IMG/VR virus record: IMGVR_UViG_2609459852_000002
DNA from: a virus
Lineage: Monodnaviria > Loebvirae > Hofneiviricota > Faserviricetes > Tubulavirales > Inoviridae
DNA: 7,952 bases
Direction: 5' to 3' (one strand)
Positions 4,559 through 4,729 of this stretch are shown piece after piece. A model generated the notes under the pieces. The model saw nothing but the letters and a program-made list of their open reading frames with translations, did no database searches and had not been told where the DNA came from. How positions within the stretch are numbered: position 1 is the stretch's first letter; the number at the start of each line of letters is the position of its first letter. Made by a program: the position numbers and the translations under genes.

Positions 4559-4729
4559 TCACCAGTAAAAACTAAATGGTTTTACAATTCGACGGAAATC
4601 CTGATCGGCTTTTTCAAGAATAACTGAAACAACATATTCTTCAATGGTTGTATTTTTATTGTAAATAATTCTTTCTATCTGCTCGATAGTGTATTCCGGC
4701 AATTTAACTTTAAATTCTTGAGTAGACAT
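4559..4729 (-). CDS. Hypothetical 56-aa protein, possible ribbon-helix-helix fold, translationally coupled to the pIII-like gene
   Basis: Hand-translated ORF below the track threshold: [63 protein letters not shown] 4 nt upstream of the ATG; its TGA stop lies 4 nt upstream of the pIII ATG (TGG TGA TGA A ATG). Strand-helix-helix pattern inferred only from residue pattern. Confidence 0.4.

Follow-up and report, generated by a model that had tools for sequence, protein, structure and literature searches.

Judged from its conservation between two clades, the 56-codon open reading frame that lies between the major coat gene and the adsorption gene (gIII) of a filamentous prophage of Escherichia coli is a genuine gene under purifying selection. 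Its product, called X here like the gene itself, probably adopts a ribbon-helix-helix (RHH) fold according to structure prediction, and its distribution among the genomes searched marks it as an accessory gene of one E. coli filamentous prophage lineage. Tentatively, and with slightly less than even confidence, we read X as a small RHH protein that would act as a dimer, bind DNA and regulate a target within the structural module or the host, and that would be produced in step with pIII. Dimerization, DNA binding, coupling and a regulatory role are properties that we infer for X.

Filamentous prophages are common in pathogenic E. coli, and their accessory genes are almost entirely unstudied. 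X offers a compact and testable candidate, being predicted to bind DNA, absent from sister phages, and riding with the adsorption and assembly genes. If X regulates phage or host genes, it would constitute a second layer of control outside the classical repressor region and could explain strain-specific differences in phage production or in superinfection; if it is just another small regulator, the finding would be an ordinary one.

The prophage and the interval between the coat gene and gIII

The window (the whole stretch of 7952 bases that was analyzed) is one complete unit of an Inoviridae (filamentous) prophage from E. coli. Fifteen complete E. coli genomes contain at least 80% of it with an identity of 98.5% or above. 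Deposited phage genomes gave no near match. In strain O166:H15 JNE21-003 the prophage lies in tandem with at least two copies (NZ_AP041809.1 1752568-1765073), and the window is exactly one repeat unit. The morphogenesis genes are all on the minus strand, where the order runs from Rep_trans through a gene for a 111-aa ssDNA-binding-like protein, a gene for a 57-aa small hydrophobic protein, the major coat gene and the region of the mini-ORF and X to the pIII-like gene, and then on to pVI (DUF2523), Zot/pI and the secretin. The features of this region are as follows.

6864..5638, minus strand: Rep_trans replication initiator
4864..5112, minus strand: major coat protein gene, 82 aa (RefSeq start), PHROG 2186 virion structural protein (E 6e-14)
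4820..4847, minus strand: intrinsic terminator after the major coat gene, AAGGGCGGA-TAT-TCCGCCCTT and then T7
4736..4813, minus strand: unannotated hydrophobic mini-ORF of 25 aa, MFDFIFMMFGSLCGLCCVIGFKSNL, in the frame of X and beginning 6 nt past the terminator T-run
4733..4736, minus strand: Shine-Dalgarno-like GAGG of X, in the sequence ...ttgTGAGGttttATG, overlapping the TGA stop of the mini-ORF (4738..4736)
4559..4729, minus strand: X, 56-aa ORF encoding a predicted RHH protein, RefSeq WP_000107046.1 (hypothetical protein)
2905..4554, minus strand: pIII-like adsorption/minor coat gene, 549 aa, upstream of the DUF2523/pVI, Zot and secretin genes

The major coat gene, which adjoins the X region on its upstream side, also has a weak Pfam match to Phage_Coat_B. 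The pIII-like protein is made up of a signal peptide, N-terminal domains, a Gly-Thr/Ser repeat linker and a C-terminal membrane anchor; its C-terminal domain matches PHROG 7187/3942, and over its whole length it is 47% identical to pIII of the prophage of an O158:H23 strain. The terminator after the coat gene, which had been called in the initial annotation, is real: its 9-bp GC-rich stem (4847..4827) followed by T7 has a folding energy of -22.8 kcal/mol (z = -4.6). Downstream of it come the mini-ORF, X and gIII. X does not directly follow the terminator; the initial annotation overlooked the 25-codon hydrophobic mini-ORF that intervenes.

X is a conserved gene

The 56-aa ORF was found as initially annotated, on the minus strand from 4729 to 4559, and its description as non-hydrophobic (GRAVY -0.34, maximum 15-residue window 0.8) with a good Shine-Dalgarno sequence (GAGG, 4 nt before the ATG; upstream sequence gtGAGGttttATG) also holds. 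Its length alone is no proof of a gene, because the window holds dozens of spurious ORFs of that size. RefSeq leaves one intact copy unannotated, and we found no paper that mentions WP_000107046.

Lack of conservation in related phages had been named at the outset as an argument against the ORF; instead, a second E. coli clade has a homologue at this very position, 43-50% identical to X. We refer to the window type as clade A and to P0005 with its related variants (L005 and others) as clade B. A word-indexed search returned near-identical E. coli proteins only. An exhaustive HMMER search of 1.84 billion representatives gave a single distant cluster, P0005 (63 aa; 46% identical, E 8.5e-8), whose gene lies between those for the coat protein and pIII on a metagenomic inovirus contig, and a profile search added 18 further clade B variants of 58-64 aa, all from E. 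coli. In the resulting alignment of 21 sequences, residues 1-56 align without a gap across both clades and 19 columns are invariant. Between the clades pN is 0.36 and pS is 0.72, with synonymous sites saturated. The clearest case is the motif D44-F54 (DFRxIVKPFSF), in which 10 of 11 residues are identical, seven of them through different codons; Ser53, for instance, is AGT in one clade and TCT in the other. That the C-terminal motif is kept through different codons points to selection on the peptide and not on the nucleotide sequence.

Within clade A the pattern is different. The 11 alleles contain 11 nonsynonymous and 4 synonymous variable sites, the neutral expectation being about 4:1, and no other gene in the region is as polymorphic as X. 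We considered positive selection within this clade and rejected it: the window and L004 differ by 6:0, but all alleles together give 11:4, which is indistinguishable from neutrality. The changes fall mostly at first codon positions, and an alternative reading frame behind them was rejected, none being found that overlaps X on the same strand or antisense. Of the loci translated, all but one have X intact. Frameshifted copies are P0003, P0004 and L014; at least one frameshift, located in an A-run on a contig with 1.2x coverage, could stem from faulty assembly. The constraint between clades, the near-neutral ratio within clade A and the frameshifts together suggest that X has been constrained in the long term and has recently been loosely constrained or diversifying.

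X is confined to one prophage lineage

The initial annotation had called X an extra gene, and the survey of related inoviruses (62 loci, Zot 38-100% identical) bears this out: only three of the 62 carry X, all of them near-identical phages (Zot at least 96%). The coat gene leads to pIII without X in Dulem virus 53, Inovirus D_HF5_61, CUS-1 of UTI89 and the O158:H23 prophage. X of clade A is present in 27 of 5426 complete E. coli genomes, always at 96% identity or more, and in a handful of IMG/VR and metagenome contigs. Neither the word-indexed search nor the exhaustive HMMER search of 1.84 billion representatives gave a homologue outside E. coli, and X was not found by tblastn of 50,697 phage records, blastn of plasmids or pattern scans of GTDB species representatives. 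Two candidate distant homologues were discarded, as each shares only DFRRIVKPF with X: one (L016) lies inside a thymidine-kinase-like ORF on a GC-rich contig, and the other (P0006) is a protein of 1840 aa. The GC content of X is 30%, compared with 44% for the window and 47% for gIII (the segment of mini-ORF and X, 4559-4822, is likewise at 30%), and this low value would fit a foreign, moron-like origin.

X of clade A is combined with three replication modules. The first, in the window, is Rep_trans with a divergent 71-aa ORF; the second, in L004 and L026, is a Phage_GPA-type replication endonuclease with an IS110-family transposase; and the third, in S21EC, is another Rep with an SSB and an HTH regulator. 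Clade B X goes with a Phage_GPA Rep, beside hipBA. The association of X with several unrelated replication modules suggests that X belongs to the structural module, and that a phage-borne target would be sought there, or else a target in the host.

Comparison of the clades delimits a further feature.

3154..4822, minus strand: divergent cassette, clade A (window) vs clade B (L005), 43-83% DNA identity with flanks mostly at 85-100%

The cassette holds the mini-ORF, X and the N-terminal two-thirds of pIII. An allele of X designated A' (89% identical; L004 and L013) is accompanied by an N-terminal region of pIII that is nearly unchanged, with about 2 differences per kb. Because A' X pairs with this near-unchanged N terminus, X and the N-domains of pIII are not strictly co-inherited.

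The mini-ORF and the junction with gIII

The mini-ORF upstream of X is itself conserved. Its TGA stop lies inside the GAGG of X, and its stop is 6 nt from the start of X in all 12 loci examined. A mini-ORF with the motif G..[CS][GA]...[VIL].G[LF] lies beside the gIII start in 51 of 62 related IMG/VR inovirus loci; in most phages of the inovirus group, CUS-1 included, the homologue abuts or overlaps the gIII start, and in the O158:H23 prophage the mini-ORF is followed by gIII after 34 nt, with X absent. Between clades A and B pS is 0.73 and pN is 0.14, and the changes within clades are 5 synonymous to 0 nonsynonymous (0 nonsynonymous to 4 synonymous between the window and L004). From these patterns, the mini-ORF probably encodes a real tiny membrane protein, which may be a minor coat protein like pVII/pIX or a leader of gIII. 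Relatives without X carry the mini-ORF at gIII, and the ancestral order is therefore coat gene, terminator, mini-ORF and gIII, with X inserted between the last two. For annotation, this conserved and unannotated 25-aa putative membrane peptide abutting gIII may matter more than X. Homologues of 25-29 aa were seen at ~661-738 in L005, at 8681-8770 (minus strand) in L017, which is the O158:H23 prophage, and at 8048-8170 (minus strand) in L018.

At its other end X meets gIII closely. In clade A the stop of X is 4 nt from the gIII ATG (TGG TGA TGAA ATG, and the sequence TGATGAAATG quoted in the initial annotation is correct), and the ATG is preceded by a weak GGTGA. In clade B gIII starts with GTG, before which the final codons of X contain GGGAGG or GGGGGTGG; the stop of X either overlaps this start (GTGA) or comes 14 nt after it. 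The variable clade B tails beyond F56 (GGGREIK, WGWS, GRLL, GR, GG) result from translating this junction in different frames. The close spacing of stop and start is thus kept despite the sequence differences between the clades, as coupling would predict. The proposal that translation of X is coupled to that of pIII fits this geometry, which both clades keep at ~60% nucleotide identity, and gains no support from RNA structure: folding at the junction of X and gIII is no better than that of shuffled sequence in either clade (z = +0.3 and +0.8), and coupling that depends on RNA structure was rejected. Translational coupling between X and gIII is hence suggested by the geometry of the junction. 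Promoter-like matches between the terminator and gIII are at chance level only, and near X there are no convincing operator-like repeats.

In three clade B loci from draft E. coli assemblies (L019, L022 and L024), gIII is called about 240 nt downstream of X. Their junction sequence is identical to that of loci in which gIII starts at the overlap, and either gIII is disrupted there or its GTG start was missed. Farther into gIII of the window, in the part that codes for the signal peptide, a 14-nt inverted repeat (4473-4486 and 4520-4533, 12 of 14 positions complementary, 33 nt apart) is folded into a hairpin by both the MFE and the centroid prediction. By a rough estimate (p about 0.2) such a repeat does not clearly exceed chance, and it shows no obvious conservation in clade B.

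The predicted fold of X

The residue pattern of X had suggested an RHH fold from the start. This guess gained support from structure prediction and fold search, and none from any sequence profile library: there is no significant Pfam, NCBIfam, PHROG or PADLOC match to X of either clade, and no RHH family in Pfam or NCBIfam matches even at E <= 10. A weak Pfam match to HTH_40 (E 0.026) was set aside because the X model has only two helices.

AF2 run with the 21-sequence alignment, which is shallow (Neff about 1.5), gave a best model with a pLDDT of 80.9, the five models ranging from 58 to 81; the single-sequence run reached 60. The model comprises an extended segment at residues 1-11 (with EFKVKLP as the putative beta-ribbon), helix A (12-25), the turn N26-x-T28, helix B (29-49) and a conserved aromatic tail (K50-W56) that is flexible. 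It has the strand, helix, helix topology of ~45 residues, and the N-terminal strand is unpartnered in the monomer model, as expected of an RHH monomer. Foldseek searches of this model against the PDB and against BFVD returned mostly RHH proteins, the best structural matches being the type II antitoxins TacA1/2/3, KacA, AtaR, ParD, RelB and MazE6.

Hallmarks of RHH proteins are a strand that alternates buried hydrophobic with exposed polar or basic residues and a turn of the G-x-S/T/N type before helix B. When the X profile was compared with PDB sequences, Arc (E 0.72) and KacA (E 0.91) were among the five best, both not significant. The alignment with Arc is in register over the strand and both helices (X 5-40 to Arc 9-44; hhalign P 0.007, probability 5.5%). 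In this register F6, V8 and L10 of X would point inward and align to F10, L12 and W14 of Arc, and E5, K7 and K9 would point outward and align to Q9, N11 and R13, with a proline (P11) after the putative strand. Position 9 is K in clade A and Q in clade B. The turn N26-x-T28 is invariant in the 21 sequences of both clades, with N in place of the usual G. The protein as a whole is slightly acidic (net charge about -1), which is unusual for a DNA binder.

A possible regulator made with pIII, and alternatives

In the reading that we tentatively prefer, X would be a cytoplasmic protein of 56 residues which, by analogy with the RHH fold, would be expected to pair into an intertwined dimer that contacts DNA with its N-terminal beta-ribbon, E5, K7 and K9 pointing outward. 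N26-x-T28 would cap helix B, and the aromatic tail DFRxIVKPFSF may serve contacts between dimers or with a partner. The insertion of X between the mini-ORF and gIII would have left the hand-over of ribosomes intact, and the geometry of stop and Shine-Dalgarno sequence on one side and of stop and start on the other suggests that X would be translated from transcripts reading through the terminator, at a constant ratio to pIII. X would most likely be a small transcriptional regulator, probably a repressor, with a target expected within the structural module or on the host chromosome and not in the replication/lysogeny module. An essential role as a chaperone for pIII, one of the functions initially proposed, is unlikely because relatives with a 47% identical pIII do without X.

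The main rival to a DNA-binding regulator, which we consider unlikely, retains the RHH fold and takes X for a protein-binding adaptor like an orphan antitoxin or an anti-defense factor, with DFRxIVKPFSF docking on a host or phage protein and, for example, neutralizing a host toxin or defense component during chronic infection. It is consistent with best structural matches that are type II antitoxins with a C-terminal partner-binding tail after the RHH domain, with a tail that is the most conserved part of X at the amino acid and not the nucleotide level, with the net charge of about -1, and with an AT-rich, lineage-restricted and accessory gene. However, no toxin-like partner gene is adjacent, the neighbors being pIII and a mini-ORF that also occurs without X; the tail extends only about 7 residues past helix B, far below the tails that wrap toxins; and there is no PADLOC match. 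Distinctly unlikely, in our estimate, is a tie of X to the adsorption module, whether as a feedback regulator of gIII or as a superinfection-exclusion factor that diversifies with the receptor-binding domains, for example by turning down the host genes for the receptor or for entry on which the cognate pIII depends. The single block of divergence between clades A and B, made up of the mini-ORF, X and the N-terminal two-thirds of pIII, speaks for such a tie, as do the K (A) or Q (B) at the putative DNA-reading position 9 and the production of X together with pIII that the junction suggests. Yet this linkage may be hitch-hiking beside a gene under diversifying selection, the A' allele of X (L004/L013) goes with a near-unchanged N-terminal region of pIII, and relatives with a homologous pIII do without X. 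A more speculative proposal, to which we give little credence, is that X and the receptor-binding part of pIII make up an exchangeable adsorption-plus-immunity cassette with an RHH repressor made in step with pIII. X may then silence host entry genes for phages of the same pIII type or feed back on gIII, and its DNA-reading residues would diversify with the receptor-binding domains. We know of no description of such a pairing for filamentous phages.

Two further explanations dispense with a functional X protein. X could be a cis-acting leader ORF whose translation, possibly with arrest by the C-terminal nascent peptide, sets initiation at gIII, the free protein being without function; X indeed always stops 0-14 nt from where gIII starts, its last codons contain the gIII Shine-Dalgarno sequence, and the most conserved peptide segment adjoins the stop codon. 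Set against this, all 56 residues align gaplessly and the prediction is a globular RHH domain, X has neither the signal peptide nor the membrane segment of secretion-monitoring arrest peptides, no mRNA structure hides the gIII start (z = +0.3 and +0.8), and in relatives the mini-ORF is already an upstream ORF abutting gIII, so that we regard a leader as highly improbable. Just as improbable is a decaying or non-functional ORF in the spacer between gVIII and gIII. The near-neutral 11 nonsynonymous to 4 synonymous sites in clade A, the frameshifted copies in some assemblies and the intact copy that RefSeq leaves unannotated would all be explained by decay; but frame, length, start and junctions are kept across two clades with saturated synonymous sites, the C-terminal motif survives codon changes, and all but one translated locus are intact, with at least one frameshift that may be an assembly error.

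Comparison with known systems

If the predicted fold is right, X would belong to a known fold class, as a sequence orphan encoded at an unusual place in the genome. Its closest counterpart is Arc of Salmonella phage P22, a member of the Arc/MetJ/CopG RHH superfamily, which is similar in size (53 vs 56 aa), whose chains superpose on the X model with a TM of 0.62-0.65, and in whose register the putative strand of X would alternate inward hydrophobic with outward polar or basic residues before a proline. Unlike Arc, to which its sequence similarity is not significant, X is slightly acidic, has an extra conserved aromatic C-terminal tail, and is encoded inside an inovirus structural-gene operon and not in an immunity region; DNA binding is putative for X. 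X also differs from the antitoxins TacA, KacA and AtaR (DUF1778) and ParD, as it has no adjacent toxin gene (GNAT or ParE), a tail of only ~7 residues and no sequence-family match. From the arrest peptides SecM, MifM and VemP it is set apart by having no hydrophobic segment and no significant RNA structure.

A viral RHH protein of exactly this size that represses a virion structural gene is SvtR of the archaeal rod-shaped virus SIRV1, with 56 residues. The likeness to the regulator that we tentatively propose is a functional analogy only, since virus, host domain and sequence are unrelated. Among filamentous phages, small RHH genes with accessory or regulatory functions include ORF13 of Pseudomonas phage PMBT54, an omega-like repressor (PMC10534721), and the antitoxin PfiA of the inovirus Pf4 (PMC13048266). 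Unlike X, both are located at the regulatory or accessory ends of their genomes and not between the coat gene and gIII, and no homology search detected sequence similarity of X to either. In the literature we found no RHH gene described for the interval from the major coat gene to gIII.

The window shares the series of major coat gene, terminator, adsorption gene, pVI, pI/Zot and pIV with Ff, CTXphi and CUS-1/Ypfphi. It departs from the canonical gVIII-terminator-gIII arrangement by two extra reading frames in the interval, of which the mini-ORF is common to most relatives, CUS-1 included, whereas X is unique to its lineage.

Other features of the prophage

The prophage is modular, with a structural and assembly block that runs from the coat gene to the secretin (69-5294) and a block for replication and regulation (5295-7952 plus 1-68), for which at least three unrelated replication modules were seen. 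Its chromosomal sites are in the terminus region, beside hipBA or a fimbrial cluster, and between ybiB and hcxB, the latter with an IS110-family transposase and a gene of the phospholipase D family. In the replication and regulation block of the window, the divergent 71-aa ORF (7166-7381, plus strand) matches PHROG 2503, of unknown function (E 1.5e-27), and has no PDB sequence match; by position it is a candidate phage repressor. A paralogous relationship of X to this ORF was ruled out, as the two have no similarity.

Between the genes for the ssDNA-binding-like and coat proteins, the 57-aa ORF (5115-5288, minus strand) has a C-terminal hydrophobic segment; it is unannotated in RefSeq NZ_AP041809. 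Gene calls include it in related contigs, where it is conserved, and its product is a candidate minor coat protein. Among near-identical prophages, the Gly-Thr/Gly-Ser repeat linker of pIII (~3230-3500, minus strand) is the main place of length differences and mismatches, and the length of pIII ranges from 525 to 569 aa in close relatives.
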